IMG/VR virus record: IMGVR_UViG_3300021425_000005
Direction: 5' to 3' (one strand)
DNA from: a virus
DNA: 64,000 nt
Positions 3,124-54,670 of this stretch are shown in pieces (position 1 is the stretch's first letter; every line of letters begins with the position of its first letter). Under the pieces are notes generated by a model. That model was not told where the DNA came from. It made no database searches and saw nothing but the letters and a program-made list of their open reading frames with translations. A program made the position numbers and the translations under genes.

Positions 3124-3603
3124 GGTATTTTTTGGATTTGTTTCAACTTTTTTTATACCTGCAATACGATATCTTTCAGCAGGACAAGTGAAATCTACAT
3201 CCCTCTGTTCCCGCAAAGTGGCATCCTCAGACTTTAAAATAGTCACCATTGGATTGTCTTTTATGTCATTCCACATTGTTTCAATCGTCAAAGTGTCGCG
3301 TTCCCTCTCCCACTTCAACCATATCTGTTTAATTGGGAAGGGGTGTTCATTCGTCGTCAGCTTATGCCATTGTTCATATGAAACTCTTGACTTCAGTTCT
3401 AATGCTGCTTCACTCATTAATGTATTATATTTTTTGACTCGTGCACTATCTGCAAAATATCCGACAGTAGCTGCATCTGATAATGCACGCATCATTTGAC
3501 CCATATCTTTATAATGTGGGATCTCATCCTGAATGGCTTTCAGGAGAGTTTCTAATCGCCATTTCATTTGATCGGCGAAACTTTTTGGATATCCCTCAAA
3601 CAC
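3109..3603 (-). CDS. hypothetical protein, possible His-Me finger (HNH-like) nuclease
   Basis: TNEHPFP...VTILKSE...L...RY..AGI pattern. Confidence 0.4.
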   Translation of the reverse strand: MFEGYPKSFADQMKWRLETLLKAIQDEIPHYKDMGQMMRALSDAATVGYFADSARVKKYNTLMSEAALELKSRVSYEQWHKLTTNEHPFPIKQIWLKWERERDTLTIETMWNDIKDNPMVTILKSEDATLREQRDVDFTCPAERYRIAGIKKVETNPKNTLTFD

Positions 3604-3802
3604 CTAAGATATTTCCTGCTTTGTTCTGATCAAGCGAGCCACCATTGCGGAGATGTTCCTCGACTTGTTCGAAATAGAAAGCGGCATCATCGTGCCCATA
3701 TTCTTCCAATGCTTGCTTGCATGCCTTGAAGAACAACATTGTTTTCATATCGCTTCCGCTATCAGCACCCGAAGCGCGATGTGTTTTACCCATTCGTTGC
3801 AT
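3596..3802 (-). CDS. hypothetical protein
   Basis: 68-aa ORF coupled to both neighbours. Confidence 0.6.
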   Translation of the reverse strand: MQRMGKTHRASGADSGSDMKTMLFFKACKQALEEYGHDDAAFYFEQVEEHLRNGGSLDQNKAGNILGV

Positions 3803-4302
3803 TATATCAGCCTCTCTCCATATGCATAGATTTCAGATTTACAGACCGACGCACTGAAGCGCGGATCTTTATTCTGTTTGCCGTCCTGTTTCCGTTGGAA
3901 AGCCCGACGCACTTTTGGAAGTATAATCTCGAGAACATCGTTACCATCTAACTTCCAGAGTTCGACCACCTTACCACCCTCGTATCGAGCATAATAGTGG
4001 TTCTTGTATTTTGCGATCTTATCTTCTCGCAAATAACGCACCTGCTCATCCCATGTCGGTTGGCAGGAGATAGCACCATAATGTGCCGCAATCGAGTTAC
4101 CGATGGTCGACTTATATTCACAGCCACCATCCTCGTCATAACCGTCTGCTCCAGACAGCGTATCAGATACTGTATGTCCTAACAGACCAGCCATGTGGAT
4201 CTCTTTACTGCGAGCATACGAAAAAGGATCGCCCCACCCATGTTCCTCACACAGGTCGAACATATCTTCATACAATTTACGAAACTTTTGCTCGGGTGTC
4301 AT
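3802..4302 (-). CDS. putative PD-(D/E)xK restriction-endonuclease-fold protein
   Basis: E(IHMA)...GAD...EYK catalytic-type motif; start trimmed to MTPEQ with GGAGG SD. Confidence 0.55.
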   Translation of the reverse strand: MTPEQKFRKLYEDMFDLCEEHGWGDPFSYARSKEIHMAGLLGHTVSDTLSGADGYDEDGGCEYKSTIGNSIAAHYGAISCQPTWDEQVRYLREDKIAKYKNHYYARYEGGKVVELWKLDGNDVLEIILPKVRRAFQRKQDGKQNKDPRFSASVCKSEIYAYGERLI

Positions 4303-4304
4303 GA

Positions 4305-4505
4305 TTAGTCCTCCAAGCCTTCCATATGATCGGCGCATTCGGCGTCGTTAATGAAACCCCAAACCTCCTCTAAAAACGCTTCTAAATCTTCGAATGAAGC
4401 GTTTTCTGGGTCTTCGGTTGGCCAATCGAAACCGTATAAAATGGCTTCGTCTTTGAGTTTTAAAATCTCTTTAATAAGTGCTTGTTTCATGACTTGTCCT
4501 CTCAT
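4305..4505 (-). CDS. hypothetical acidic early protein
   Basis: Short ORF after the promoter at 4521-4548. Confidence 0.6.
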   Translation of the reverse strand: MRGQVMKQALIKEILKLKDEAILYGFDWPTEDPENASFEDLEAFLEEVWGFINDAECADHMEGLED

Positions 4506-4518
4506 TTCAAGTTATACT

Positions 4519-5070
4519 TTATTCTAGCACATTGGAGATAAATGTCAACACCTTTTTTGTATCTTCTGCATTTTTATGTTCGAATGTCGTAATGTCTCCA
4601 TCATCAAACAGGTTTGGTCCAAACTCGGACTTGATATTCTTCAGCTTCGTAAAGCGAGACTGGATGAATTGTTCAGACTGATCAGAGCCACGATCGACAT
4701 ACCGCTGCTCTCGAAGGTCGTCTGGGACAGTCAACTCGACAATCACCAGCTTATGACCAGCTGCTTTCACTGCTTGGAAGAATGAGACTGTGGTCAGGCG
4801 ATCGCCCTCGAATACCACCGTGTCAGCAGGATCTCCCTCGAGATACTCGATTGCCTTCGGTTGGACAGCCATCGAGAGGCGATCGGTTCCAGAGAACACC
4901 TCACCCTCCTCATACTTACCCATGACAAAGATACCCTCATCTCGAGCCAGATACCCATCCAGCAGGTCAACTGGCTTGTGTTCTTCCCACATCCAGTTTT
5001 CAAGAAACTGTTTCATTAATGTCGACTTCCCAGTTCCAGGAACACCGACGATCGCAATCACTGTGCTCAT
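4519..5070 (-). CDS. P-loop kinase, 5-hydroxymethyluracil DNA kinase (5-HMUDK)-like
   Basis: Walker A GVPGTGKST, F.GTDRLSMAVQP, VFEGDRL and R..RGS.Q motifs; adjacent to the amino acid:DNA transferase. Confidence 0.8.
   Translation of the reverse strand: MSTVIAIVGVPGTGKSTLMKQFLENWMWEEHKPVDLLDGYLARDEGIFVMGKYEEGEVFSGTDRLSMAVQPKAIEYLEGDPADTVVFEGDRLTTVSFFQAVKAAGHKLVIVELTVPDDLREQRYVDRGSDQSEQFIQSRFTKLKNIKSEFGPNLFDDGDITTFEHKNAEDTKKVLTFISNVLE
4521..4548 (-). promoter_or_regulatory. sigma70-type early promoter within the 3' end of the kinase gene
   Basis: TTGACA-N16-TAGAAT followed by the conserved GTATAACTTGA leader. Confidence 0.65.
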
Positions 5071-5360
5071 TTAAACAATCCGACCAATGATGGTTTTTTA
5101 GGCATTTCTGTAATCAACCCATGATGAAGACGAACTTGGTCATCAAATTTTTCTACACCACATGCTGTGATCATCTTGCCTTGTTCCTCACACCAGACTG
5201 GGGTGTTATAAGCCTTAATACAGACATTTCTCTTTGGGGAATCTGGGCTATTAGCCCAACCTCTTTCCGTATAGAACTGGTTTTCGGGTAAAAAATCTTT
5301 CCACACTCGACACCAATAGTGTTTCTCACCAAAAATTAATTTAACCATATCACTACTCAT
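5067..5360 (-). CDS. hypothetical protein in the DNA-modification operon
   Basis: 97 aa, 4-nt overlaps on both sides; ends in SLVGLFK. Confidence 0.65.
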   Translation of the reverse strand: MSSDMVKLIFGEKHYWCRVWKDFLPENQFYTERGWANSPDSPKRNVCIKAYNTPVWCEEQGKMITACGVEKFDDQVRLHHGLITEMPKKPSLVGLFK

Positions 5361-6370
5361 AGCGGTAAAACTCCCTCTACATTTTGTTCATCACTATACA
5401 TCATCTCCAGACGATCCAGCTGTCCCGTCTTTAGAAATGAATCAAACTTACTCTTGTTTATACCTGTTTTTGTCGCTAATGTCAAGTCTAAAGTTTCTGC
5501 TCTGGCTTGCCATAACACTTCCCATTCGATACCAGACCACCCATCCTGCTCGACTTTCATAATCTCTTCAGCTTGGCGATCCAGATAGTAACCGAGATAC
5601 CGACCGTGATGTGTTCTAAACAGCTTCTTGAAGGAGCAGAGACACGTCTCCATAGAGAAATAGTCCAACTGATCAGCGAGGTGTGGATATTCGATACGCA
5701 TCTCTTGTAACAGATACCGAGCGTTGTCCTCCAGTCTCTGATACTCGTCTGCAGTCAGCCTTGTATTCACTTTATCCTCTTCGCCGAGAGCATAGAGCCA
5801 GCCATTGCGATGAGAGCGTGAGCCAGAATAATCATTCAGCATCAGACTGGTTGACTCCATGGGGATATCTGCTGTATGCTTCAGCTGTTGCATATAAAAC
5901 CAAGTCGAGTAGCGACCAAACTTATACAGACCATCCTTCAGAGCCACCCAGAGATTATCGAAGTTCTGTTCCTCGTTGTCTCCGAAATACGACTCCAGCT
6001 TCTCACGCTGCGTTCCCTTGCCCACGAACTTCTCATACGAGGCATACATGTCTGCCAGATGTCCCTTGCTCCACTTGGTGTCAGTCTGATAGCGAAGGCG
6101 TTTATAGTTCTCCGTGTTCCAAGCATCCATGCGATCGAATGTAGCCAACTCGAAATCAGGAAACTCATTCATCAGCACCCACGAGGTCGGGAGATAGTAT
6201 GTATTGCCATACAGCCACGAGAACCAGAGGCGTTGCTCATCATTATGCTCATAGCGTTCGTTGATGTAATTAGCCATCCAGATGGCAGGGTCACAGTCAC
6301 CGTAGTTCAGCGACCATGCATACCACCGCTTGAATGCTTCACGACGATTCTGGCGTTCTCTATAATCCAC
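5357..6370 (-). CDS. amino acid:DNA transferase (alpha-glutamyl/putrescinyl-thymine pyrophosphorylase clade 2)
   Basis: DCDP, W..WLYGNTY, LRYQTD.KW, HhH-like FGRYSTWFY.Q, ETCLC.FKK and RY.GYYLDRQ motifs. Confidence 0.8.
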   Translation of the reverse strand: MDYRERQNRREAFKRWYAWSLNYGDCDPAIWMANYINERYEHNDEQRLWFSWLYGNTYYLPTSWVLMNEFPDFELATFDRMDAWNTENYKRLRYQTDTKWSKGHLADMYASYEKFVGKGTQREKLESYFGDNEEQNFDNLWVALKDGLYKFGRYSTWFYMQQLKHTADIPMESTSLMLNDYSGSRSHRNGWLYALGEEDKVNTRLTADEYQRLEDNARYLLQEMRIEYPHLADQLDYFSMETCLCSFKKLFRTHHGRYLGYYLDRQAEEIMKVEQDGWSGIEWEVLWQARAETLDLTLATKTGINKSKFDSFLKTGQLDRLEMMYSDEQNVEGVLPL

Positions 6371-6905
6371 GTGGCTCTTTCCAATAGTCTTTCACGCAAC
6401 CACCCATACCTTTCTTAGTGACTTCTTTCTCTGTATAATCATCCCATTCCCAGATGAGATCGTTTACACTTGGTCCAGCGAGGCGTCCAATAGACAGATA
6501 GGTGTCGGATGCTTGAATGCCCCAAGTCTTAAAACCCACCTTCTGGTAAGCAGTCAGAGCAGGAGCATTGATTGATACTCGGAAGTGTTTTAGATTCGCC
6601 ATATACGCACGATGAACAGCGTCCTCACACAGAGCGCGAAACACACCTTTGCCCCTCGCGTCTGGGATAGTGACGATCCACTTCAGATTAGCATAGTTCT
6701 TCATCATCTTGGTAGCAATAACACCCAAGATCTTACCATCCTCGTAAAATGCGCGGATACAGTCATGACATTTGTCGTCAATGATTCCACGCTTCATTTT
6801 AGAGAAGAATTTGTCTGTGGCTTTATGTTCTTCACAAAACACAGACCATTCGTCAAATGACAGGTTGGAGATCCCGTCCTGCACATTCGACTCGCTCAGA
6901 TTCAT
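6360..6905 (-). CDS. GNAT-family acetyltransferase
   Basis: Motif A VT.PDARGKGVFRAL and motif B N.PAL.AYQKVGF; start trimmed to MNLSES. Confidence 0.8.
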   Translation of the reverse strand: MNLSESNVQDGISNLSFDEWSVFCEEHKATDKFFSKMKRGIIDDKCHDCIRAFYEDGKILGVIATKMMKNYANLKWIVTIPDARGKGVFRALCEDAVHRAYMANLKHFRVSINAPALTAYQKVGFKTWGIQASDTYLSIGRLAGPSVNDLIWEWDDYTEKEVTKKGMGGCVKDYWKEPRGL

Positions 6906-7491
6906 TAGTGATTCCAGCACGTTTTGCAATGTCCTTTGTTGATGTAATAATATAGCCATTATGTAAATCAACCTTGTAGAGAGGTCGTTTACCGTTTCGA
7001 TACCAGACCAACATACCATCAGAGTGCAACTCGATGACAGCCAGCGATGAGTTTTCCCATTCAACAGCAGGATTCAGACCAGCTTCCAGTGTGTGGTTGA
7101 TCAGTTCAGTATCGTTCTGTGTCGTTGTTTTATACCCATACAGCTTCTCCCAGTTCTCTGGGAGTTCCTGAGTGATAACACCATTGTGGACAACAGCGAC
7201 ATCGTCATTGATTTGGATGGGCTGATTGTAGCGGAGATCGCTCGTTGAATAACGACAATGCCCAATCAGGTGAAGATCGCCACTATCATCCAGAAACTGC
7301 TCCATATCAGACAGAGGAGTGAATTCAGGAGATGGGACAGGCTCTTTGATAGTGACGACCTTACCTTTGTTCACATACGATAATCCAGTCGCATGCATAC
7401 CTCGAATGCGAGATTCGAGAAACACTTTCCTCACCATTTCAAGTTGTTCAGGTGTGGGAGATTTGAGTGCTGCACCAATGACAGCGCACAT
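6853..7491 (-). CDS. class II (Ntn) glutamine amidotransferase, stand-alone
   Basis: N-terminal Met-Cys, RG.HATG, GHCRYST, NQP, VHNG and NDTE motifs. Confidence 0.85.
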   Translation of the reverse strand: MCAVIGAALKSPTPEQLEMVRKVFLESRIRGMHATGLSYVNKGKVVTIKEPVPSPEFTPLSDMEQFLDDSGDLHLIGHCRYSTSDLRYNQPIQINDDVAVVHNGVITQELPENWEKLYGYKTTTQNDTELINHTLEAGLNPAVEWENSSLAVIELHSDGMLVWYRNGKRPLYKVDLHNGYIITSTKDIAKRAGITNESERVECAGRDLQPVI

Positions 7492-8795
7492 TAAAACAGA
7501 TCCTCGAGTGAGGCGACACCAGCCGAGTTAGGATGATACTTGGTAAGCATATCCTGACCACCGTGTTCACCAAGATAATCATACCACTCTTGGGTCTCCC
7601 ACATATTAGGAGAGACACCGTTCCAGAGAGGACGCCACTCGGCATGCTCTTCATTCAGGCGGCGATGGTCAACAAAGTTCTTACGCAATGTCTCATATTC
7701 AAACGAACCAAGATTCGCCATCTTCTCGCGAGCATATGCAACGATAGAGATACGGATCGGATCGTCACCGAGGATCTGGGTGTTACCGTGAATGCCATCA
7801 TGGTTGTTCACGAGGAGCAGGTCTCCTGGATGCAACTCAACAGCAATACGATACTCTGGGAGGACAAACAGACAGCCATCCCAGCTTTTCTTACCATCAG
7901 GACTGATACAGCTGATGTTAGAGAAACCCTTTGTAAAGTCACCAGCATCACGGTGAGCAGCAGTGCGGAATGTCTTGTTGACAGTTAGCGTTGTATAAGG
8001 TGTTCCAGGAACTACAAACTTAGGATCGATATTGTTGGTAAACTCAATCTGTTTACCATAGCGTTCGGGGAGCAGTTCCTCGAACTTACGAGCCAGCGTC
8101 TGCAGGTAAGGATAGGACAGAGCGAACATCTCTGGGTTCTTCTCTGTGTAAGATGTAGCGCGACCATATGGGATACGCGGATAACGATCGAACCAGCCAG
8201 CGATACCAGAGTTCACTGTATTGGCATACGAGGTGTCAGAGATATAGTTCTTCACCATAGACTTGGCTTCAACTTTGCGTTCTTTGGCTGACAGTGGACG
8301 AATAGAGTCGAGCCACCAGTCAAAGAATTCAGAGTATTCGACACCAGCCTTTTTGATATTGTCGCGCAACCATACACGTCCACGACCAGCATCATCTGGC
8401 TTGTGGCGAGCAATAGCGTCCTCAATAGCATCGAAGTCTGCATCGAGCGAGGAATCAGGAGCAGTAAAAATCGCGTCGAGGATATCCTCCTGTAGAGGTG
8501 TCACCCAATCACGCTTACCATTCTGTCCTGCGCGTGGTCCAGCAGCCAGACCACGATTCTGTGTCTCGATAGCTGCCTCGTATAGACCAGCATATGCACC
8601 CTCTTGTTCCTCTTTAGAGAAAACTCCCTTACGGAACTTGAAGATGATATTATCTTCATTATTGACCCCACCGATCTTATCCTCGGCATACAGGTCTGTG
8701 TCGGCTGTGATAATCTGATCATAGTGACTATCATCGAGCCACTGTCCGAGCAGATGCTCACAGTCATGCTTTTCAATTGTAAGTTGTTTTACCAT
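7491..8795 (-). CDS. TET/JBP-family 2OG-Fe(II) 5-methylpyrimidine dioxygenase
   Basis: TTLTVNKTFRTAAHRDAGD (HxD), HGNT (distal His), RISIVAYARE (2OG-binding Arg); start trimmed to MVKQL with AGGAG SD. Confidence 0.85.
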   Translation of the reverse strand: MVKQLTIEKHDCEHLLGQWLDDSHYDQIITADTDLYAEDKIGGVNNEDNIIFKFRKGVFSKEEQEGAYAGLYEAAIETQNRGLAAGPRAGQNGKRDWVTPLQEDILDAIFTAPDSSLDADFDAIEDAIARHKPDDAGRGRVWLRDNIKKAGVEYSEFFDWWLDSIRPLSAKERKVEAKSMVKNYISDTSYANTVNSGIAGWFDRYPRIPYGRATSYTEKNPEMFALSYPYLQTLARKFEELLPERYGKQIEFTNNIDPKFVVPGTPYTTLTVNKTFRTAAHRDAGDFTKGFSNISCISPDGKKSWDGCLFVLPEYRIAVELHPGDLLLVNNHDGIHGNTQILGDDPIRISIVAYAREKMANLGSFEYETLRKNFVDHRRLNEEHAEWRPLWNGVSPNMWETQEWYDYLGEHGGQDMLTKYHPNSAGVASLEDLF

Positions 8796-8803
8796 ATTCA
8801 CTC

Positions 8804-9004
8804 CTACCAATGTCTGATCACACCTGCGATAATAAAGAAGCAGGTGATCCAATTCACAAATTGTAGTAACATACGAAGATATAAACCTTTCTTCGCTTGT
8901 TGCATAGTCAGAACAGGGACTTTTGGTTCATCCTCATCTGTCCTGCCAATATAATAGTCGAGCGCACGAGCGACGACTTTTTCCCATGTGCGATATTCAA
9001 CCAT
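8804..9004 (-). CDS. small membrane protein
   Basis: 66 aa with a C-terminal hydrophobic helix ending IIAGVIRHW. Confidence 0.65.
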   Translation of the reverse strand: MVEYRTWEKVVARALDYYIGRTDEDEPKVPVLTMQQAKKGLYLRMLLQFVNWITCFFIIAGVIRHW

Positions 9005-9737
9005 TACGAATCACCTCATTGTAGTTCACTGCCTCTTGGAGGAGAGATAAATTACAATTGTATCTTTTAGATGTTTCAAGCAAGGCTGATGTATCCTTTG
9101 GGAAGCAGTGACCACCGAACCCACGCTCATCTGTAACGACCATATGGCTGTCACCAATGCGTGGATCTCTAGCCACTAATTTCTTAACATTTTCATATTC
9201 TACACCAGTTGCTTCACAAAAGTCAAACAATTGATTGAAGAAAATAACTTTTGTTGCTAGAAAACTATTCACAGCATATTTCATTGTGATTAGTTCTTCA
9301 GGATCTCGACTATACATCTTGCGACCCTCTTGCCAGAAGATGGAAGCCCAGAAAACATCATCGCCGCCACCGAAATAGAATGCTTCAGCGTTGGCGAAAT
9401 CCTCAAATGCAGTTGCTTCTCGGAGAAACTCAGGGCTGAATGTGATATTCAGTTTTGGGAATCTCTCTTTTATCTGTCGCCAACCCTCTAATGAGATCGT
9501 GCTTTTGATCAGGATCGGGATATTTTTCGGACACTCTCGCAACACACTGAATACATTATTCATGTTACATGAGCCATCAATAGATTGTGGCGTAGATACT
9601 GCAACAATAACAGCATCTGGTTTACCGATTTTATTGTCGTTGAATGCTGGATCTACTACAGTGACATCATGCTTTTCTTTCAGCATCATCTCATGTGCCT
9701 TGCCGACAAAGCCATAACCAAATATTGTAATCTTCAT
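8997..9737 (-). CDS. UDP-glucose/GDP-mannose dehydrogenase-family protein (short form)
   Basis: GYGFVG Rossmann motif, KSTI, PEFLRE and GFGGHCFPKD. Confidence 0.85.
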   Translation of the reverse strand: MKITIFGYGFVGKAHEMMLKEKHDVTVVDPAFNDNKIGKPDAVIVAVSTPQSIDGSCNMNNVFSVLRECPKNIPILIKSTISLEGWRQIKERFPKLNITFSPEFLREATAFEDFANAEAFYFGGGDDVFWASIFWQEGRKMYSRDPEELITMKYAVNSFLATKVIFFNQLFDFCEATGVEYENVKKLVARDPRIGDSHMVVTDERGFGGHCFPKDTSALLETSKRYNCNLSLLQEAVNYNEVIRNG

Positions 9738-10156
9738 TCTATATGTCCCACATCAACACCAGCAGTCACAAGAAACACGTTTCCTACATCAGTTTTATAT
9801 TGGTTTTTCCAAACCACGCGAGTGATGCCAGCTTGATAGATTAGTTTCGCGCAATCAAGGCAAGGTGAGTGTGTGGTGTAGAGAGTAGCACCTTCACAAC
9901 TTTCACCAGACCGAGCCACCTTTGCGATGGCATTTGTTTCAGCATGTAACACTTCTGGTTTAGTTACAGGCATATTACCAAACTCGTCTGTAATTTCACA
10001 ATCATTCGTCCACCCAGATGGCATACCATTATATCCGATAGAGATGATGCGGTTATCTTTTACGATAACTGCCCCCACCTGTAGTCGTTTCGCTGACGAT
10101 AGCTGAGCATACACTTCAGCTGCCTTCATATGTGCTTTATCCCACTTGTTCATCAT
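9734..10156 (-). CDS. cd: dCMP deaminase
   Basis: GYNG, HAE and PCLDC zinc motifs. Confidence 0.9.
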   Translation of the reverse strand: MMNKWDKAHMKAAEVYAQLSSAKRLQVGAVIVKDNRIISIGYNGMPSGWTNDCEITDEFGNMPVTKPEVLHAETNAIAKVARSGESCEGATLYTTHSPCLDCAKLIYQAGITRVVWKNQYKTDVGNVFLVTAGVDVGHIE

Positions 10157-11700
10157 AACTCCAGTTTCTTTATTTTATAATCATATATGAATTTATCCAA
10201 AATGTCAAGGGAAGGTGAGAAAGAACCTATCTCTTCAAATGATTGCATCATATCATTTAGCGAATATCCTGCGACGAACCACTCATAAAATTTATAAGGG
10301 TTTGGACCAAACTGCCAGTGATTGTCAGCATACATGTGACAAACCTTCACGATTGCCTCCCAAGCATTGTATGCATCATTCTCCCATGGTATAGAAAAAT
10401 AATCGTTCGCTACACCTGTCGTGAGCATCCTGATGTAATTTTTAATCTCTGTCGAGATAGTATCGTCCCCATACAGAGATTCAATTCTTTCATCATTTTC
10501 TATGAAAATATTATCCCATGTATTATCTGTATATCCATAATTCTTGTAGTCGCGAGAGAAGACTGATGTGTTAATCGTTGTTCCCTCTCTCGGTATGAAC
10601 AGTGGGTTGATTGTCAACGACTCCCCCTGCCAATTATTTTTAATCCAACTCCATGTGTTGTCTATCGTCTCTTCAGTATCATGTGGCAACCCAATAATGA
10701 GACTGATCAGACCTTTATAGAACCCTGTGTGCTTTTTCATATACTCTTTTGTATACAGGATGGTCTCTTTCAGCTTCTCTGGCTCCATGCCTTTACCGAT
10801 AGACTTCGCTGATGCATGATTGAACGACTCAATGCCATAAAAATGACCATTATATCGCATACGAGCAAGATGCTCAATATCATCTGGTCTAGCGGCGAGG
10901 AGATCTGCTCTGATGTAGCCATGAAAATGTGGTTCAAAATCTAGCTTCTCTACTACATTAGCATACTTGATTACCTTCTCCGTGTAATCATTAAACGTCT
11001 CGTCGGCTATTGAATATTTTGTAATGCCCCAAAGGTCGAAATTTGTCTTCAAGTTTTTCTCGAAGTCGACAGCTGACCTAGTGTGGTCGTCTCGAACACC
11101 TAAGATCGGAAATGTGCAAAACTTACATTTGAAGATGCAACCTCTGGCGCATTCCATAGTCAGAGATTCATTAGGATCTAAGAAGTCTCTTTCTTCATAT
11201 TCGATAGACAAATCATCCATCGGGAAGGATGGATATTCATGTAACGCTTCAATGACCCGTCGATTGTCACCCTCTTCATTCCATGGTCTCTCTACATACT
11301 TCACAGTTCCGCGAAGTATCTCTATCATTGCCTTTTCAGCAAATCCTACAACGTGGTAATCTACATTCAATTGATGTATTGTTTGGAATGATTGACTGCC
11401 AGCCACAGTCTTGATATTAGGATAGTTCTCTTTGATCCAATCTACAAACTCACATACTATGGGGAAGTTGATATTGAATGTGCCGCCGAATCCTATCACT
11501 TCGGTATCGTCGTTCACACGACTTTTCACTAATGATTTCAATTCATCTAATGACCATGACATCAAGAAATCAAAGACTTCTACATCATAGCCATATTTTC
11601 TCATGAATGTGGCAATGCGGTGTGTCCCTGCACTTCTACGGACAGATGGGACACCAGTATTAAATTCAAACGTGCCGCCAAATAAAAGCGCATCACTCAA
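10153..11700 (-). CDS. radical SAM protein with B12-binding-like N-terminal domain (paralogue 1)
   Basis: RGCIFKCKFC (CxxxCxxC), ADETFND, GIES, IIGLP. Confidence 0.85.
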   Translation of the reverse strand: MSDALLFGGTFEFNTGVPSVRRSAGTHRIATFMRKYGYDVEVFDFLMSWSLDELKSLVKSRVNDDTEVIGFGGTFNINFPIVCEFVDWIKENYPNIKTVAGSQSFQTIHQLNVDYHVVGFAEKAMIEILRGTVKYVERPWNEEGDNRRVIEALHEYPSFPMDDLSIEYEERDFLDPNESLTMECARGCIFKCKFCTFPILGVRDDHTRSAVDFEKNLKTNFDLWGITKYSIADETFNDYTEKVIKYANVVEKLDFEPHFHGYIRADLLAARPDDIEHLARMRYNGHFYGIESFNHASAKSIGKGMEPEKLKETILYTKEYMKKHTGFYKGLISLIIGLPHDTEETIDNTWSWIKNNWQGESLTINPLFIPREGTTINTSVFSRDYKNYGYTDNTWDNIFIENDERIESLYGDDTISTEIKNYIRMLTTGVANDYFSIPWENDAYNAWEAIVKVCHMYADNHWQFGPNPYKFYEWFVAGYSLNDMMQSFEEIGSFSPSLDILDKFIYDYKIKKLEL

Positions 11701-12527
11701 GTTTTAAATTCCCACTCATGCCCAGCCATTTTTAAGAATTTCATAGCCCAAAAAATATGACGCTTTCGACCAGCATGCATCAGATCCCTAGCAAGATCGT
11801 GGTTGTCAAATATTGTAAAAAATTCATCATCATTGTCTTGATGCGTATGGTAAAATGGAGTTTCAAACTGATCACAAAGCGACTTAATCGCTCGCATTGT
11901 TTTTTCTCTCGATAATATCCATTCACCTTCAGTCTCAAACCTCATAGCAACTGGGTCTGGAGCGTGAATAGATGACATATGAAATCCCATACTGTTAGTT
12001 TGAGTTTCATATCTAACTCCTGGAGGTTCTAAAAAAAATACATGAGAAGGTCTAATTTTTGGCAACCATGAGAGCAAGACACGAAAGGCAGAGTCATGAG
12101 AACCTGCACAGATACCAAGATTATATGGTCTATGGCGTAATGTATTTCCTACAAGAGTTGGCCAAATCTGACCGACTGGCATACCAATGCCAAATGTATT
12201 TGAACAACCGATTGTTATGATGCTTCTTGGTTTTTTTTCATTAGGCATTTCTTCGCAACGAAAACCATAAGAGTTTAGTTGATAAGAAAGTTTTACCCAA
12301 TCATTTAGAACTGGTTTGTCTGGTGTGTAGAGGTAATAGTTATACCCCTTATCCAAGTAAAACTTTTCAATCTGATCTTCCTCGATCGATAACCATCCGT
12401 TTTCTTTTAGTTGGTCGTAATTTTCTTTTAGATTTTTCTCATATAATTCTTCTGTGTCGGTGTTGTAAAATGAATGTTCTGATGGTTCCTCTTCAACACC
12501 TCGAGCATAAGACCATTCGGGTTTCAT
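11697..12527 (-). CDS. SGNH-hydrolase-like hypothetical protein
   Basis: LNSYGFR, IGCSNTFG.G, YNLG, ARDLMHAG. Confidence 0.55.
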   Translation of the reverse strand: MKPEWSYARGVEEEPSEHSFYNTDTEELYEKNLKENYDQLKENGWLSIEEDQIEKFYLDKGYNYYLYTPDKPVLNDWVKLSYQLNSYGFRCEEMPNEKKPRSIITIGCSNTFGIGMPVGQIWPTLVGNTLRHRPYNLGICAGSHDSAFRVLLSWLPKIRPSHVFFLEPPGVRYETQTNSMGFHMSSIHAPDPVAMRFETEGEWILSREKTMRAIKSLCDQFETPFYHTHQDNDDEFFTIFDNHDLARDLMHAGRKRHIFWAMKFLKMAGHEWEFKT

Positions 12528-12813
12528 ATTATTTCCTGTAGGTTAGATGTGCCCACATGCGTGCCCAGAAACCCTTAGTTTTCCAGTCATTATGCACACG
12601 AGTCCACTCGTTGAAACTTTTATAAAGTTTCTGCGGCGGCTGTTCAATCATTCGCACTAACATATTCATCTCCAATTTTTTCAGTCAAATACCAGTTTGC
12701 AAAATCGCTATGTTTTCTCAAGAACTGGTGAACTTGGTCGTGTGTCATCTGATCAGAGCGAATCATCTCAGCCCACATCTCATAGCGTTCTAATTTAGTT
12801 GAAGGAATCACAC

Positions 12814-13005
12814 TCATTTATTTACTCCACCAAAAATTATCTGTAATAGTTTCTTTGCTCTTTTTCGAGCAGCACCAGTTTCGGGAAGTTCTTTTCGTTC
12901 TACCTTTTCCACAGGTGCTGGTTTAGCATCTGGAATGCTTTCTTTACTCGGAGCGCACGAAACAATTAATGTGGCAAGCAACAGACTAATTATGTTCTTC
13001 TTCAT
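12814..13005 (-). CDS. putative lipoprotein
   Basis: MKK, hydrophobic stretch and lipobox IVSC. Confidence 0.6.
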   Translation of the reverse strand: MKKNIISLLLATLIVSCAPSKESIPDAKPAPVEKVERKELPETGAARKRAKKLLQIIFGGVNK

Positions 13006-13336
13006 ATTCTCTCATCCACGTATTAACCTGTGCACGACCAACTTTTTTCTCAATCCAATCTAAAATGATTGCAACTCCGATAATAGATCCTCGTTTTTCA
13101 CCCATGACATACCCTATGGCATAAGCAACAATTAAACAAACCATAGCGATTATTGTATGTGTGATTACGTCCATTAGATACCTGCTCTCAGTTGATTAAG
13201 TTTCTTTTCTGCATATTTCAGCTTTAGCCACTCTTTGTTGACTTCAACATATTTATCAAAATCTACAGGGTCTTCCTGCCAGTCATGCCGTTCCACACAA
13301 TTATCGAACCACATGGTCTTAGCGAAATCTAAAAAC

Positions 13337-13927
13337 TCAACTTCCCACGATTTCATCATAAATCATCTCCCAGCTTTTAACTACTTTAAAATCACCATTG
13401 GCTTTGAGGCTATGCCCATGCTCCATTAAGATAGAGTCATAACCAATATCACTACCCAATTGAGCATTCACAATTTTGTCTTCAATCCAGTAACAACCTT
13501 CATACTCATAACTCAAGTCGATAAGGATATCGTCTTTATCAGCACCAGTGTCAAGGCAGATAACTTCTTGGAATGTATTATCACCGAACAGTTTAGCCAA
13601 GTTCCGTTCCCGCAACTTTTGCGCATAAGGGTCTAAAGACAAACTTGTCACAGCGATAAATTTATATTTGTGCTTCTCATGTAGCAGCTTGATATAATAC
13701 TGCGCGTCCCGAAGCGGCGGAAGAAATCCAATAGCAGCAGAGGCATTGAACTGACGAACCAGTTTATTGCTGGTTTCTTTATCCATGCCATACCGTTTAG
13801 CTACATCATATTTGTATTGATAATCATCAACGAGTTGATGTCCATTGTAATCCATCCAGATTGCGAAACTTTCTTCCCAATCAAGAACTACACCGTCAAT
13901 ATCTGTCAAAATAATTTTGTTTTTCAT
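13337..13927 (-). CDS. HAD-family nucleotidase, T4 gp30.2-like
   Basis: ILTDIDGVVLDW (DxDG) and WIEDK..N; start trimmed to MKNK. Confidence 0.8.
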   Translation of the reverse strand: MKNKIILTDIDGVVLDWEESFAIWMDYNGHQLVDDYQYKYDVAKRYGMDKETSNKLVRQFNASAAIGFLPPLRDAQYYIKLLHEKHKYKFIAVTSLSLDPYAQKLRERNLAKLFGDNTFQEVICLDTGADKDDILIDLSYEYEGCYWIEDKIVNAQLGSDIGYDSILMEHGHSLKANGDFKVVKSWEMIYDEIVGS

Positions 13928-13951
13928 ATTTTTTCCTCTCATCATATTATC

Positions 13952-13980
13952 ATCATACCCCATTTTGACAGAAAAGTCAA
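13952..13980 (-). promoter_or_regulatory. sigma70-type early promoter
   Basis: TTGACT-N17-TATGAT. Confidence 0.7.
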
Positions 13981-13983
13981 CCC

Positions 13984-14190
13984 CTAGTCATCCCAAAATT
14001 CATAAAGATCGCTCTGGATCTCATAAAACATGTCTTCTGCCATGGTCATTATCTGACCAATGATGTCGCTGTCACCGAACCGCTCAATAACAGCTTTGGC
14101 CACATCGTCAAATTTTGTATTGTAATTAACACAAACCGCTTCATTGACAACAGTTTCTAACTCTTCATAAAAATCACGCACGACCTTCAT
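13984..14190 (-). CDS. hypothetical acidic protein
   Basis: 68-aa ORF with AGGA SD. Confidence 0.55.
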   Translation of the reverse strand: MKVVRDFYEELETVVNEAVCVNYNTKFDDVAKAVIERFGDSDIIGQIMTMAEDMFYEIQSDLYEFWDD

Positions 14191-14389
14191 ATCCTTTTAC
14201 TTTGTGGCTTTCAACCATATACAAATCATTACCATGAACTTCTAGGATCTCACGACCCTCAAGAATACGTTGGCGCACAAAATGGGCGGCATCGCTCATC
14301 ACTTGCTCCATAGAATGGGCTTGGATAATCTTAGCACCCTTTGAGCCATTTTTAAACTCGATAGTAATATCAGCATAAAACATTTTCAT
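14174..14389 (-). CDS. hypothetical early protein
   Basis: Start trimmed to MKMFY, after the promoter at 14418-14446. Confidence 0.6.
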   Translation of the reverse strand: MKMFYADITIEFKNGSKGAKIIQAHSMEQVMSDAAHFVRQRILEGREILEVHGNDLYMVESHKVKGYEGRA

Positions 14390-14417
14390 AACAAGTTCCT
14401 TTCTCAAGTTATACTTA

Positions 14418-14446
14418 ATAATAGCATAAATTGTCAGGAATGTCAA
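14418..14446 (-). promoter_or_regulatory. sigma70-type early promoter
   Basis: AAAAAACGC-TTGACA-N17-TATTAT followed by the GTATAACTTGAG leader. Confidence 0.75.
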
Positions 14447-14459
14447 GCGTTTTTTTCAA

Positions 14460-14467
14460 TATAAATA
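14460..14467 (+). promoter_or_regulatory. T4-type late promoter
   Basis: TATAAATA upstream of the + strand NUMOD3 gene. Confidence 0.75.
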
Positions 14468-14493
14468 CAAGAAATATGTAAAAAGTGATAATA

Positions 14494-15015
14494 ATGGCTC
14501 GCGCATCAAGGTTTTTCGCCTTTAAAACTCGTAATGAATACTGGATTGTAGACGAAAAGTCTCTCCAGGAAGTTCCCAAACCGAGAGAAATGCTGATTAA
14601 GTTCTCAACAGTAGAGTCTGTTAGAGAATATGTCATCACACAAAACAAGGCTGACTTGCCTATCGTGGATAGATGTAGGGATAGAACAGGTTGGCACACA
14701 CCAGAAGGTCGCGAGCGTATCCGAGAAGCTAAACTTGGTAAAGGAAATCCAAATAGTGATGGTCTTACTGATGAACACAAAAAGAACATCAGTAAGACCA
14801 TGACAGGAACTCGTCGGGGTGAATTCAACCCTATGTATGGTCGTAAACACAAACCAGAAACTATCGCGAAGATCCGTCAAAAAGCGTATGAAAGACCCAA
14901 ACGTAAATGGTGTGTCGAACCAAATGGTAAGAATCACCTGATCAATGAAGATGTAGATTTACCAGAAGGATGGCAATGGGGAAGATTTTTCGACCCCTAC
15001 AAACCTACACCATAA
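14494..15015 (+). CDS. NUMOD3-repeat DNA-binding protein (homing-endonuclease-derived)
   Basis: HTPEGRERIR, LTDEHKKNIS and NPMYGRKHKPETIAKIR repeats; C-terminal LPEGWQWGR; no clear nuclease motif. Confidence 0.75.
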   Translation: MARASRFFAFKTRNEYWIVDEKSLQEVPKPREMLIKFSTVESVREYVITQNKADLPIVDRCRDRTGWHTPEGRERIREAKLGKGNPNSDGLTDEHKKNISKTMTGTRRGEFNPMYGRKHKPETIAKIRQKAYERPKRKWCVEPNGKNHLINEDVDLPEGWQWGRFFDPYKPTP

Positions 15016-15709
15016 TGTTAGATTCATCTTCGAACCAATTTAAAATCTCTCTGTGTTCATTTGGTCCAGCATGAAAACCATCTCTAGATCCTTTATTGAA
15101 ATCTGTTGGAATAGGGAATGAACATTTTAAATCAATGATGGTTTTAAGATAACCCAGAGCGTGTTCACAACGCTTCTGCAACCAATATTGATGTCTCTCT
15201 TGTGAAACAAGGTCTAAAAATAATTTTTGTTTGAATCTATTTTGCTCGGTATTTTGCCAAAATCCACCCATATCCATAGCCATTTTTGTATTCCAGAATC
15301 CCACTGATTCTATTTCATTCGATGATATAAATTCTTGTCGATTAATATTAGGGTGCAATATATAAGCGTGTTTAATATCTAGGTGATCAGACCAATATGT
15401 CAATAGACGATGTGTTGTCTCAATCGATCCAGCTACTGCACCAAGATTAATATACTCTAATTCTGCATGGTGAATCTTGTGATGTTGAAATGCCCATGTT
15501 TGTTCATGCTCAACACCCATCCCGAATGTAGTGCTATCTCCAAGATAAACAACACAAGGGTTTTTGACATCAGTTAAGTCCTTATCAAAACGAAACCCCT
15601 GATTGTTAAAACGATATGACAATGGAACATCAGTATTATTGTCCCACATAAATTGGTCAGTATGTTTGCCTGCATACTCTAGTTGAAATTTTAGTGGATT
15701 ACCATCCAT
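15005..15709 (-). CDS. SGNH-hydrolase-like hypothetical protein
   Basis: FNNQGFR, LGDSTTFG.G, INLG, RDGFHAG; similar to 11697-12527. Confidence 0.55.
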   Translation of the reverse strand: MDGNPLKFQLEYAGKHTDQFMWDNNTDVPLSYRFNNQGFRFDKDLTDVKNPCVVYLGDSTTFGMGVEHEQTWAFQHHKIHHAELEYINLGAVAGSIETTHRLLTYWSDHLDIKHAYILHPNINRQEFISSNEIESVGFWNTKMAMDMGGFWQNTEQNRFKQKLFLDLVSQERHQYWLQKRCEHALGYLKTIIDLKCSFPIPTDFNKGSRDGFHAGPNEHREILNWFEDESNIMV

Positions 15710-16200
15710 TATTCAGCAGCCTTTTTCTTTCGTGTTTTCTTTACTGGCTTATTGTATTCTGTGATACCGAGATCCTTCAAAAGTTTCTCAAGTTTCGGAT
15801 ATAACTTCAGCAAAGTGCCGTCCTTCACAGCAGTCAGAACTGCAGCTTCTTTGTAATGCAATCCCTCTAAGATCTGTAACCAGTTCATCTCTTGCTTCCA
15901 TGTCGGAAGATTGCGAAGATTACCTTCTGGATTCATGAAAGTGTTGATGCGACGCCATTCCATTTGAATCGTGGTGTCGCCCATACCTTCAGGCAAATCT
16001 TTCTCCAACTTTACAGTCTCGGGCATACCTTCTGGCAGCCCCCACTCAACCTTTTCAGCACCGACACCGATACGAACTAGGGGAACAACTGTTTGATTGG
16101 TTGACGCCCATTCTTTCAAACGAGCGATCTGCTCATCCTTGCCATTTACTTCAAAGACCCAGTCAAAGCCTTCATTTGCTTGTCTAAATTTTCTAGCCAT
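15709..16200 (-). CDS. conserved T4-like phage hypothetical protein
   Basis: LP.G.P and LQILEGLH..EA..L..VKD..L motifs; usual position next to rnh. Confidence 0.65.
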   Translation of the reverse strand: MARKFRQANEGFDWVFEVNGKDEQIARLKEWASTNQTVVPLVRIGVGAEKVEWGLPEGMPETVKLEKDLPEGMGDTTIQMEWRRINTFMNPEGNLRNLPTWKQEMNWLQILEGLHYKEAAVLTAVKDGTLLKLYPKLEKLLKDLGITEYNKPVKKTRKKKAAE

Positions 16201-16372
16201 TATACACTCTCACTACGATAATTATCTACAAACCCATTTTTTGATTCGGGAATATATTTACGAGTGTAAGTTTTCTTCATCAGTTTTTTGTCGACCCACT
16301 CATACACGACATACTGCTCAGACGAAAGGTTTTTACAACGCTCTTCATCATATTCTTCAAATGGATTACTCA

Positions 16373-17254
16373 TCAAAAATCCTCCGCGACTTCCATCATA
16401 TTTTTCAGCCGATATTTTACAAAATAATTAAGCAAGTGGGCACGGCTCTTACCTTTTTGCTTTTCATAACTATCTATAACTGCATCTTTGATCTCCTGAG
16501 GAGTCATAGATAAATCAACGAGTTGTTTATTACGAACATATCCAGAAGCCATTTCACCTGTGATAAACTCTTCAGGCTTCTGTTTCTTCCATTCAGCTAA
16601 CAGGTTTTTACGAATAGGTTTCTGGCGTTTACCTTCAGTCACAAATGTATCATCAGCACTTAAAATATTAGGGACACCATCACCTTTATCACCAGTGATG
16701 ATATGCTCCATCAATACTTCTTGTGGTGTTTCCTTCAACTTCACCATACGCTTTTTCATTGGCGAATATTGGCTCACATTAGAATACTTCTGTAATTGCT
16801 GGAAGTCGTGGTCTCCAGAAATAATCAAAAATGGCTCTGCTTCTTCGAACAGCGCACCTTCCTTTGAAGTTTGGCTGTATTCAGCCAGTGTGCCAATCAC
16901 ATCATCAGCCTCAGCACCCTCAATATCTAAAAGAGGATATGGCATAAACTCATCAAGTTCGTTACGAATAAGATGTAAAGCATCAAAGATAGATGACCAA
17001 TCATGCCCACTCGCATCACGCGCTTTTTTACGAGCAGCTTTATAGTAAGGATAAACCTCGCGACGCCAGTAATGACGATTGTCACAAGCGATAACAAGTT
17101 CACCATAATCATTGCCAAACCGATTACGATATGTCCGCAACTGATTGAGAATCATATGCCGAAGTAAATCGACATTGATTTCTACTCCTGGACGACCACG
17201 AGTCTCAGCCATGAAGTTTGAGATGAAGGTCTGGTTATAATCAATTACAATCAT
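16373..17254 (-). CDS. rnh: RNase H / 5'-3' exonuclease
   Basis: YWRR..YPYYKAARK, EADDVIG, SGDHDF.QL, GDKGDGVPN. Confidence 0.92.
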   Translation of the reverse strand: MIVIDYNQTFISNFMAETRGRPGVEINVDLLRHMILNQLRTYRNRFGNDYGELVIACDNRHYWRREVYPYYKAARKKARDASGHDWSSIFDALHLIRNELDEFMPYPLLDIEGAEADDVIGTLAEYSQTSKEGALFEEAEPFLIISGDHDFQQLQKYSNVSQYSPMKKRMVKLKETPQEVLMEHIITGDKGDGVPNILSADDTFVTEGKRQKPIRKNLLAEWKKQKPEEFITGEMASGYVRNKQLVDLSMTPQEIKDAVIDSYEKQKGKSRAHLLNYFVKYRLKNMMEVAEDF

Positions 17255-17757
17255 ACTTCATCCTCCTCTGGCTCGTGACCCCAACGATATCCAAGGTCAT
17301 CATAATACACGCCATGTGCTCGTTTGATGTTACCTTCATCATCATATGCAGGAACAGCACACCGCCATTTAATTTTTTGATTCATGTGTTCACCATAGAA
17401 CTCATCTACCCAATCACCATCTCGCAAATACCTATTCATATTGCGGATATATGCTTCATAGCTTTTGACTTCAGCCTCTGCACCCTTCATACCTTTACGA
17501 ACAGATGCACGTGCTTCTTTCAATAATTCTTGATTGGCTTTTATCCACCCTTTAACCTTGTTGTATGAGAGATAATGCTCGTCATCGAGAGCGAGAACTT
17601 CAGCACATACATTTTTTGGTTGGGAAGGATTTGCAGCTTGACGAGCGGCTCGTGCTTTCGCTAACCGCTCGACTGCTGCTGCTTTTTGTTCGGGCGTCAT
17701 AGGTTTCCGCTTCTTACGGATTTTCTTACGCTCAAACGATTCAGGTTCTCGTGCCAT
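17251..17757 (-). CDS. conserved hypothetical protein
   Basis: Basic N-terminus; YIRNM.RYLRDGDW; GGAG SD; promoter upstream. Confidence 0.7.
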   Translation of the reverse strand: MAREPESFERKKIRKKRKPMTPEQKAAAVERLAKARAARQAANPSQPKNVCAEVLALDDEHYLSYNKVKGWIKANQELLKEARASVRKGMKGAEAEVKSYEAYIRNMNRYLRDGDWVDEFYGEHMNQKIKWRCAVPAYDDEGNIKRAHGVYYDDLGYRWGHEPEEDEV

Positions 17758-17782
17758 AATGGACTCCTTTAGTAATATACCA

Positions 17783-17811
17783 AGTATATATCAGAGTTTC
17801 CAAAATGTCAA
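17783..17811 (-). promoter_or_regulatory. sigma70-type promoter
   Basis: TTGACA-N17-TATACT. Confidence 0.7.
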
Positions 17812-17818
17812 GCAATGA

Positions 17819-18061
17819 TTATGCAACCGCTTTAATGCGATCGACAACAATTGTGCGCCAACCCTGCTTATCTACATCAAAAACAACCAGATTTTTTTCA
17901 GACGCTTTTGTCTTACCGCCTTTGGTTTCGGGGACAACATCTTCCTGCAGAGTGGCATTCATGACACGCTCAGTGCCATCCAATTTATCAAATGTGATTG
18001 TCACAACACGCTGTTGCAATTCTTTTACAATATCAGTCATATTAAACTCCATAATTAACAA
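17819..18061 (-). CDS. WYL_2/SH3-fold protein (T4 gp61.1-like)
   Basis: ITFDKLDGTER.M.ATL...VFDVDKQGWR. Confidence 0.75.
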   Translation of the reverse strand: MLIMEFNMTDIVKELQQRVVTITFDKLDGTERVMNATLQEDVVPETKGGKTKASEKNLVVFDVDKQGWRTIVVDRIKAVA

Positions 18062-21498: not shown

Positions 21499-21703
21499 TG
21501 AAAGTTTTTTCCCATTCGGTCATTGATTGTGATAGTTCTAATAATTCCATATAACCGCCGATGTGCTTATCACCTACATAAATTTGGGGGACACGCCCAG
21601 ATGGTTGATGTTCTTCAACGTATTCAATTTCAAACCCAGTTAAGAATTCTTTTGCCTGTTGGCAATATGTGCAGTCATCTCTTGACATAATTTTAACAAC
21701 CAT
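21491..21703 (-). CDS. nrdC: glutaredoxin
   Basis: CTYC, VPQI, IGGY. Confidence 0.9.
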   Translation of the reverse strand: MVVKIMSRDDCTYCQQAKEFLTGFEIEYVEEHQPSGRVPQIYVGDKHIGGYMELLELSQSMTEWEKTFNG

Positions 21704-44012: not shown

Positions 44013-44858
<846 letters not shown>

Positions 44859-54632: not shown

Positions 54633-54638
54633 GTTCTC

Positions 54639-54667
54639 AGTATGCCTCAAATGGGCAAAAATGTCAA
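54639..54667 (-). promoter_or_regulatory. sigma70-type promoter of gene 43 (probably leaderless)
   Basis: TTGACA-N17-CATACT-N6-ATG. Confidence 0.7.
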
Positions 54668-54670
54668 GTA

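Follow-up and report, generated by a model that had tools for sequence, protein, structure and literature searches.

Which chemistry is encoded by a phage gene cluster that lines up, in this order, a TET/JBP dioxygenase, a glutamine amidotransferase (GATase), a GNAT acyltransferase, an amino acid:DNA transferase (AADT), a 97-aa open reading frame (ORF) and a P-loop kinase, and from where would such a pathway draw its modified base and its nitrogen? The question is raised by positions 4519-8795 of a 64,000-nucleotide stretch of the IMG/VR virus record IMGVR_UViG_3300021425_000005, referred to below as the window. By hypermodifying their thymidines, phages block nucleases, restriction enzymes among them, and the enzymes involved are of use in DNA chemistry. 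TET-initiated GATase cassettes represent the largest published group without a known product; this GATase is encoded on more than 550 stretches in IMG/VR, mostly of T4-like phages from environmental metagenomes.

An initial annotation of the window had proposed that thymine is oxidised on the DNA to 5-hydroxymethyluracil (5hmU), phosphorylated, and displaced by a nucleophile, which could be ammonia that the GATase frees from glutamine, the resulting amine being acylated by the GNAT; as an alternative, it had let the GATase trim or amidate a transferred amino acid. It had also known of no characterised pathway with this enzyme combination. Our comparative analyses back the logic of this route, whereas the novelty of the combination was not borne out: two studies (Lee et al. 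2021 NAR, PMC8989533; O'Toole et al. 2026 PNAS, PMC13229309) describe such clusters, and the cassette adds one more member to a class that is widespread and already published, though chemically uncharacterised. Very probably, it makes a hypermodified thymine from 5hmU produced by the TET protein. Natural fusions, an invariant gene order, a minimal gene set and relatives lacking both a ThyA-type hydroxymethylase and a C5-methylase are new here; as far as sequences can tell, they support this view and sharpen the question of the nitrogen source.

The cassette and its enzymes

The six co-oriented ORFs are overlapping or coupled, as had been noted, with overlaps between adjacent genes ranging from 1 to ~50 nt. 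Two open frames are longer than the likely genes, namely that of the TET protein (7491-8852) and that of the GNAT (6360-7064). The TET start is likely the ATG at 8795, which has GGAG just upstream and fits the upstream end first given to the block, and the GNAT start is likely the ATG at 6905, backed by where the alignments of its relatives begin. The GC richness of the block, initially judged by eye, was confirmed by computation (0.465, versus 0.404 for the whole window); the block is the GC maximum of the window, and its level is reached by just 3 of 598 equal-sized sliding windows. A megablast search of the block against cultured phages returned no match, and a promoter/terminator scan of 3500-9300 revealed nothing beyond shuffled expectation.

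Judged by curated cut-offs in a Pfam scan, five of the six ORFs belong to known families, in agreement with the family calls of the initial annotation (Tet_JBP, GATase_6, GNAT, ADDT and Ploopntkinase3). The TET protein scores 68.1 bits with Tet_JBP (PF12851; cut-off 34.9), and its Fe(II)/2-oxoglutarate residues, H281-R-D283, H336 and R348 in the 434-aa numbering, are invariant in 40 homologues; this HRD...H...R signature aligns with the HRD and RISLV motifs of human TET2. The family profile matched human TET2 in the PDB (E 1.7e-4), and the AlphaFold2 (AF2) model, with a mean confidence (pLDDT) of 84, has TET2, CcTet, NgTET1 and CMD1 as its top structural matches (E 7e-10 to 2e-8 for the first three). 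The ~85 residues beyond the conserved Arg are chiefly helical, with a short low-confidence tail at the end.

In the GATase, the Cys at position 2 that had been seen at the outset is invariant in 40 homologues, together with Arg80, Asn103-Gly104 and Asp127, and all of these residues align to those of the GlmS glutaminase. The AADT scores 62.7 bits (cut-off 26.2); its D25-x-D27-P and E241-T242-x-x-C245 motifs are invariant in 30 homologues, the latter aligning to E243/T244/C247 of PaMx11 gp46 (metal ligands and catalytic Cys247) and the N-terminal Asp to gp46 D24. A BLAST alignment with gp46 is confined to the ETxLC motif, and the AADT sequence had no match in the PDB. Alignment around the glycine-binding W146/K150 of gp46 is ambiguous by three residues in the AADT subfamily, and this comparison was not used. 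The kinase (55.4 bits, cut-off 27) has the Walker A motif GVPGTGKST and is 29% identical (E 1e-9) to PaMx11 gp49, a characterised 5-hydroxymethyl-dU DNA kinase. A natural fusion of a Ploopntkinase3 kinase with a member of this TET family (P0073, 661 aa, from a Logan contig) independently supports the view that TET and the 5hmU kinase work together.

The 97-aa ORF had been listed as part of the block, where it is indeed present. It has no relative in Pfam, PHROG or Atlas, is AT-rich (GC 0.388 against ~0.47 in its neighbours) and was found in just one related locus, that of the nearest relative (L007/L022); it was thus rejected as a core or conserved component of the cassette.

Conservation of the cassette in related loci

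A GATase profile search of IMG/VR returned 554 stretches, and the locus counts given here refer to the best 80 of these. Surveying their gene neighbourhoods, we found the order TET-GATase-...-AADT-kinase to be invariant. TET is the first cassette gene in 78 of the 80 loci, while the AADT is present in 69 and the kinase in 59; loci missing one of the three are mostly short or cut by a contig boundary. About 40 loci (type A) have the arrangement TET-GATase-GNAT(type 2)-AADT-kinase, about 30 (type B) have TET-GATase-amidoligase-like-GNAT(window type)-(ParB-like)-AADT-(B12 radical SAM)-kinase, and the window clade of seven loci has TET-GATase-GNAT-AADT-kinase. The minimal set, TET-GATase-AADT-kinase, is found in L078, a 96%-complete genome. 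A GNAT occupies the same position in most loci, of the window type in 31 and of the second type in 40.

Several other arrangements were recorded. In 10 of the 80 loci, GNAT and AADT are separated by a ParB-like ORF of 430-445 aa (for example L094 10135-11466 and L059 10177-11463) with a weak ParB_N match (E 0.02), which probably corresponds to the ParB that O'Toole et al. found associated with 5mYOXs. In other T4-like phages, members of the same 430-aa TET family precede different modules: at 10001-12096 of L015/L016, TET (54% identity) is followed by a weak match to the TET-associated glycosyltransferase (TAGT), and at 10001-13932 of L013/L014, TET (72% identity) precedes three unassigned ORFs (89, 275 and 473 aa), no match to a kinase, AADT or GATase being on record there.

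The proposed pathway

From the gene content, the intact motifs and their conservation, the fusions, and the lack of an alternative source of 5hmU or 5-methylcytosine (5mC) in the relatives, we infer the following route, in each chemical step as well as in the nitrogen donor, the acyl group and the binding to a clamp. TET would first oxidise thymine to 5hmU in polymeric, post-replicative phage DNA, probably being held there by the replication sliding clamp through a polymerase-like tail. The P-loop kinase would then phosphorylate the hydroxymethyl group to give 5-phosphomethyl-dU. Cys245 of the AADT is predicted to attack C6, so that phosphate is expelled and the exocyclic methylene is captured by ammonia freed from glutamine by the GATase; the GATase and the AADT would together form a split glutamine-dependent DNA amidotransferase producing 5-aminomethyl-dU. 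Finally, the GNAT may N-acetylate the primary amine to 5-acetylaminomethyl-dU, an end product identical to that proposed for PaMx11 and reached by different first and third steps.

We assign a rough probability of 0.5 to this model up to the aminomethyl step. Taken on its own, ammonia derived from the GATase is the nucleophile that we somewhat favour for the AADT. The N-acetyl compound is a tentative choice of final product: it is predicted because PaMx11 gp48, which alone among the GNATs of thymidine hypermodification has been characterised, acts on 5-aminomethyl-dU but leaves the glycinyl precursor unacetylated, and because some GNAT occupies the same position in most loci. More speculative still is the combined picture in which a split GATase/AADT amidotransferase acts on a nucleobase in polymeric DNA and TET (and, in relatives, the AADT too) rides the sliding clamp, coupling modification to the fork.

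The nitrogen source

Class II amidotransferases are defined by an architecture in which a glutaminase precedes the acceptor domain on the N-terminal side. The window GATase is a separate 212-aa domain with no acceptor (synthase) domain on its polypeptide, and the same holds for nearly all of its 872 relatives among 1.84 billion representative proteins, which are stand-alone proteins of 200-250 aa. Only three fusions were found among them. Two of these natural proteins, P0224 (588 aa) and P0241 (555 aa), begin with a GATase and end with an AADT; the window GATase is 39-40% identical to their GATase halves. The window AADT shares 43% identity (E 1e-84) with the AADT half of P0224 and 38% with that of P0241, compared with just 25-30% with any AADT of a cultured phage; since the fusion halves are its nearest relatives, the window GATase and AADT can be viewed as the split form of these fusions. 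The genes for P0224 and P0241 adjoin 5hmU kinases and ThyA-type genes, indicating that the link between GATase and AADT is independent of the source of 5hmU. In another locus (L106), a GATase 37% identical to that of the window overlaps the start codon of the AADT.

No homologue of an amidoligase or of the PaMx11 flavin adenine dinucleotide (FAD) lyase was found in the window, and none of the gp47 FAD lyase in the 80 related loci either; the window thus offers no other enzyme that would use ammonia or unmask an amine. Based on the class II fusion architecture, the minimal cassette and the lack of a carboxylate-activating enzyme in the window, ammonia from glutamine is the most economical nucleophile for the AADT. 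The proposal that the GATase serves as the ammonia source thus gains support from the fusions and from the invariant pairing of GATase and AADT. Neither a split enzyme of this type nor any amidotransferase with an acceptor in polymeric DNA is described in the literature searched. If the proposal is true, the unexplained amidotransferases of these clusters would be accounted for, and a short enzymatic route from thymine in finished DNA to a primary amine handle, useful for DNA labelling, would be available.

A structure prediction for a complex of AADT and GATase scored 0.01, which we count for neither side. The C-termini of the GATases (6856-6880 in the window) mostly carry D-L-Q near the end after a variable stretch, with Gln209 nearly invariant, and this may be a docking motif.

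A polymerase-like tail on the TET dioxygenase

In T4 and RB69, the gp45 clamp is bound by the C-terminal peptide of the polymerase. The window encodes a candidate clamp of this type, and the C-terminus of its TET protein closely resembles that of its family-B DNA polymerase (Table 1). Among the 305 six-frame ORFs of at least 50 aa in the window, the ending [STAG]L[DE]x[LFM][FW] is found in the polymerase and TET alone. A tail of the form [S/T/A]L[E/D]x[F/L/M]F is kept in all 64 TET homologues (64/64), behind a variable linker, and in five related genomes the tails of TET and polymerase are of the same type. This shared sequence suggests that TET is tethered to the sliding clamp. The 97-aa ORF ends in PSLVGLFK.

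By analogy, we infer that the sliding clamp could take, for thymine dioxygenases without ParB, the place of the DNA-encircling ParB clamp of O'Toole et al. The tail would thereby provide a testable account of how such enzymes are recruited to DNA and perhaps of why some are inactive in E. coli.

Evidence against the pathway and a free amino acid as nucleophile

Several observations weigh against the pathway proposed above. The third fusion, P0170 (523 aa), joins a GATase to Amidoligase_2 and is followed by a GNAT, and in about 30 of the 80 loci GATase and GNAT are separated by an amidoligase-like gene. In such cassettes the GATase may serve the amidoligase instead, and given their existence, fusion to the AADT may reflect a pathway neighbourhood rather than an ammonia channel. 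The window GNAT shows no specific similarity to PaMx11 gp48, window-type GNATs in distant relatives usually come after the amidoligase-like gene, and the GNAT substrate could be an aminoacyl amine. With regard to recruitment, the TET protein belongs to the 5mYOX dioxygenases, and in clade C1 of this family a ParB-like activator is reported to be needed, some ParB-less C1 members having shown no activity (PMC13229309). No ParB-like gene was found in the window: ParB_N had no match in the ~50 of ~107 candidate ORFs scanned, a set that leaves out many short ORFs, and a tblastn search of the whole window revealed no homologue of the 443-aa ParB-like protein of relatives. Relatives of the AADT mostly end in GLExF, whereas the window AADT ends in EGVLPL. 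Finally, a hydroxymethylase or C5-methylase possibly lies in the rest of this phage's genome, the window representing about one third of ~170 kb.

The most serious alternative leaves the first two steps unchanged but has the AADT transfer a free amino acid, whether Gly, Ser, Glu or Gln, which would be in line with M6, PaMx11 and ViI. The GATase-fold protein would then trim the adduct as an Ntn amidohydrolase or, as an ammonia donor, amidate its carboxylate, and the GNAT would acetylate a free alpha-amine. All characterised AADTs use amino acids or polyamines, the nearest AADTs of cultured phages are ViI-like (28-30% identity), ViI gp247 is a serine:DNA transferase, and P0170 and the amidoligase cassettes show that a GATase can be coupled to a carboxylate-activating enzyme. 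However, the GATase is kept without an amidoligase or ATP-dependent carboxylate activator in the window, in seven close relatives, in ~40 type A loci and in L078; two lineages combine it in one protein with the AADT itself, and no AADTs are closer to that of the window than theirs; and the residues with which GlmS binds free glutamine are invariant in it. We thus consider transfer of a free amino acid unlikely, and retain ammonia from the GATase as the preferred nucleophile.

The origin of 5-hydroxymethyluracil

The window belongs to a T4-like phage, encoding a family-B polymerase, UvsX, a gp44-like clamp loader, a gp45-like clamp, a DnaB-like helicase, a T4-type RNase H, ribonucleotide reductase, ThyX and dCMP deaminase. 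The dCMP deaminase gene is an upstream neighbour of the cassette and is conserved in L004-L012. The initial annotation had described ThyX as the only thymidylate synthase and had seen neither a dUMP hydroxymethylase nor a C5-methylase. This description was upheld: no ThyA-type or C5-methylase family was detected among the window ORFs of at least 250 aa, and three candidate ThyA-type hydroxymethylases used as tblastn queries had no match in the window (best E 2.3). It had further suggested looking for these genes beyond the window. In four cassette-bearing relatives that are 96-100% complete, neither a ThyA-family gene nor a C5-methylase was found, and three of them have ThyX; the expectation thus stands as far as relatives can speak for this phage.

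A published precedent exists for the alternative supply of 5hmU by oxidation. Lee et al. 2021 (PMC8989533) reported that TET_JBP replaces the dUMP hydroxymethylase beside thymine hypermodification genes (their Fig. 2, sequences 22-25) and inferred in situ oxidation of thymine, noting co-associated amidotransferases and amidoligases to which no role was given. O'Toole et al. 2026 (PMC13229309) demonstrated that phage 5mYOXs turn thymine into 5hmU in vivo and in vitro, and found clade C1 5mYOXs to be consistently linked to GATases, P-loop kinases and AADTs (their Fig. 3B). For clusters without a methylase, thymine is the published inference as to the substrate (PMC13229309, PMC8989533). The accounts searched neither assign a product or a GATase role nor contain a characterised example, and we found no mention in them of GATase-AADT fusions or of a polymerase-like tail. 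Considering the lack of a C5-methylase together with the published activity of phage 5mYOXs, the window TET is predicted to oxidise thymine rather than 5mC.

It is very improbable that TET is dispensable, with 5hmU arising from hydroxymethyl-dUTP through a dUMP hydroxymethylase encoded in the other two-thirds of the genome and TET having another role. Such a gene would have room outside the window, and the GATase-AADT fusions do sit in cassettes with ThyA-type genes, but the near-complete relatives lack any ThyA-family gene, TET heads the cassette in almost all loci surveyed, and ThyX and dCMP deaminase point to normal dTMP synthesis. Least probable of all is that TET acts on 5mC and the cassette hypermodifies cytosine: clade A and B phage TETs do oxidise 5mC, and P-loop kinases occur in some C5-methyltransferase (C5-MT)/TET contigs, but a C5-methylase was found neither in the window ORFs scanned nor in those four relatives, the kinase and AADT families have been characterised on 5hmU only, and the published inference for methylase-less clusters is thymine.

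Other genes and sequence features of the window

Directly downstream of the kinase lies a gene for a 166-aa protein (AF2 pLDDT 93) with a full-length structural match to the restriction endonuclease PvuII (E 1e-7, TM score 0.64-0.72, 20% identity) and an invariant D...ExK motif. No methylase gene adjoins it. Over 500 relatives form its family in environmental metagenomes, Tara samples having yielded several of them, whereas four complete genomes with the cassette lack it. The window shows no avoidance of CAGCTG (32 sites observed, 35 expected). The protein could be a nuclease directed against unmodified DNA.

Three paralogous B12-binding radical SAM genes are present in the window, and in two distant cassettes (L050, L060) a B12 radical SAM gene, 28% identical, directly follows the AADT. 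One of the three may encode a tailoring enzyme. The copy at 10153-11700 was left out of the pathway, given its two further paralogues in the window and its absence from most relatives.

The 246-aa UDP-glucose dehydrogenase-like protein encoded between the dCMP deaminase and TET genes comprises no more than the central domain and part of the NAD domain, and its gene is kept just upstream of TET in relatives (59-97% identity). The redoxin/AhpC gene lies between the clamp and the clamp loader; redoxins near phage TETs have been reported by Burke et al. 2021. The palindrome TGATCA is 2.6-fold over-represented (44 observed versus 17 expected under a Markov model, z 6.6), its sites being evenly spread and mostly present as CTGATCAG within genes, and AAGCTT and CTTAAG are each observed 0 times in the window against 8 and 6 expected.

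Table 1. Features of the window discussed in the text (positions count from the first nucleotide of the window; functions are predictions)
Feature	Position	Strand	Basis and prediction
Six-gene cassette	4519-8795	-	All co-oriented; order TET/JBP, GATase, GNAT, AADT, 97-aa ORF, kinase
TET/JBP dioxygenase (5mYOX), 434 aa	7491-8795	-	Pfam Tet_JBP E 7e-19; predicted thymine-to-5hmU oxidase on DNA
TET C-terminal tail ASLEDLF	7494-7514	-	Near-identical to polymerase tail ATLEDLFS; candidate sliding-clamp-binding peptide
Stand-alone class II (N-terminal nucleophile, Ntn) GATase, 212 aa	6853-7491	-	GATase_6 E 1e-8, GATase_7 E 2e-6; predicted ammonia donor for AADT
GNAT acyltransferase, ~181 aa	6360-6905	-	Acetyltransf_1/7/10, best E 9e-8; predicted N-acetylase of the new primary amine
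AADT (aGPT-Pplase2), 337 aa	5357-6370	-	ADDT PF18724 E 5e-17
97-aa ORF	5067-5360	-	No family match; accessory insertion
5-Hydroxymethyl-dU DNA kinase (5-HMUDK), 183 aa	4519-5070	-	Ploopntkinase3 (PF18751) E 7.5e-15
PvuII-like protein, 166 aa	3802-4302	-	Structural match
UDP-glucose dehydrogenase-like protein, 246 aa	8997-9737	-	Partial NAD domain and central domain
dCMP deaminase	9734-10156	-	dCMP_cyt_deam_1 E 5e-26; dUMP supply for ThyX
B12-binding radical SAM protein	10153-11700	-
B12-binding radical SAM protein	31902-33473	-
B12-binding radical SAM protein	33458-35077	-
QueC-like C-terminal fragment	21703-22299	-	Auxiliary gene
ThyX thymidylate synthase	24788-25453	-	Pfam Thy1 E 2.6e-40; ordinary dTMP synthesis
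2-Oxoglutarate (2OG)-Fe(II) oxygenase	26451-26972	-	Auxiliary gene
TauD-family dioxygenase	42468-43352	-	Auxiliary gene
Fatty-acid desaturase-like protein	44079-44858	-	Auxiliary gene
Family-B DNA polymerase, tail ATLEDLFS	52116-54689	-	DNA_pol_B and exonuclease domains
TauD-family dioxygenase	57790-58593	-	Auxiliary gene
gp44-like clamp loader	58574-59521		Near clamp
Redoxin/AhpC	59524-60129	-	Auxiliary gene
gp45-like sliding clamp	60140-60796	-	DNA_PPF E 7e-5 and gp45-slide_C E 6e-4, in order, both slightly below curated cut-offs; proposed docking platform
GT2 glycosyltransferase	61746-62537	-	Auxiliary gene

Comparison with known systems

The closest counterparts of the cassette are the metavirome TET_JBP/5mYOX clusters, with which it shares TET_JBP, 5-HMUDK and AADT, co-associated GATases and acetyltransferases, and the lack of a nearby C5-methylase. 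Compared by features rather than by sequence clustering, it also resembles clade C1 of the 5mYOXs in its GATase/P-loop kinase/AADT neighbourhood and in the extended C-terminus of its dioxygenase, while differing in that the published subclass has a neighbouring ParB-like activator and the window has none.

In Pseudomonas phage PaMx11, the proposed end product 5-acetylaminomethyl-dU is reached through gp51 (ThyA-type), the kinase gp49, the glycine AADT gp46, the FAD lyase gp47, which unmasks the amine, and the acetyltransferase gp48. The proposed logic of kinase, AADT, free aminomethyl group and GNAT is common to both systems, as are a homologous kinase and the ETxxC motif of the AADT. However, 5hmU is supplied there by a ThyA-type enzyme and here, by prediction, by TET on DNA, and a GATase stands here in place of the FAD lyase. 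Outside the motif, the divergence of the window AADT exceeds what BLAST can align, and no specific relationship to gp48 is seen for the window GNAT. Salmonella phage ViI and Pseudomonas phage M6 share the kinase and AADT families, the AADTs of the ViI type being the nearest in cultured phages. Their routes employ a Ser- or Gly-AADT, a pyridoxal phosphate (PLP) decarboxylase and a radical SAM isomerase, whereas the window has no PLP decarboxylase and the radical SAM protein encoded near its cassette, one of three paralogues in the window, binds B12 by type.

With GlmS, PurF and AsnB, the GATase shares the N-terminal Cys and the Arg/Asn-Gly/Asp site, and its fused homologues have the glutaminase N-terminal to the acceptor domain; the differences are that the window glutaminase is a separate protein and that its proposed acceptor is a DNA-base transferase. 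In the collection searched, no cultured phage has a GATase next to an AADT. Among cultured T4-like phages, Caulobacter phage Cr30 has genes for a TET, an AADT and a 5hmU-type kinase, with identities of 42-44%, 25% and 34%, respectively, inside a 9-kb region (9022-17891 of locus L002); their annotations do not go beyond 'SNF2 DNA repair protein' and hypothetical protein. It differs from the window in that the cassette genes are scattered among other ORFs and a canonical ThyA-family gene is present; no GATase homologue was found in its 19-kb stretch or in any Caulobacter phage record. Despite its ThyA-family gene, Cr30 may provide a tractable system for TET-initiated thymidine hypermodification.

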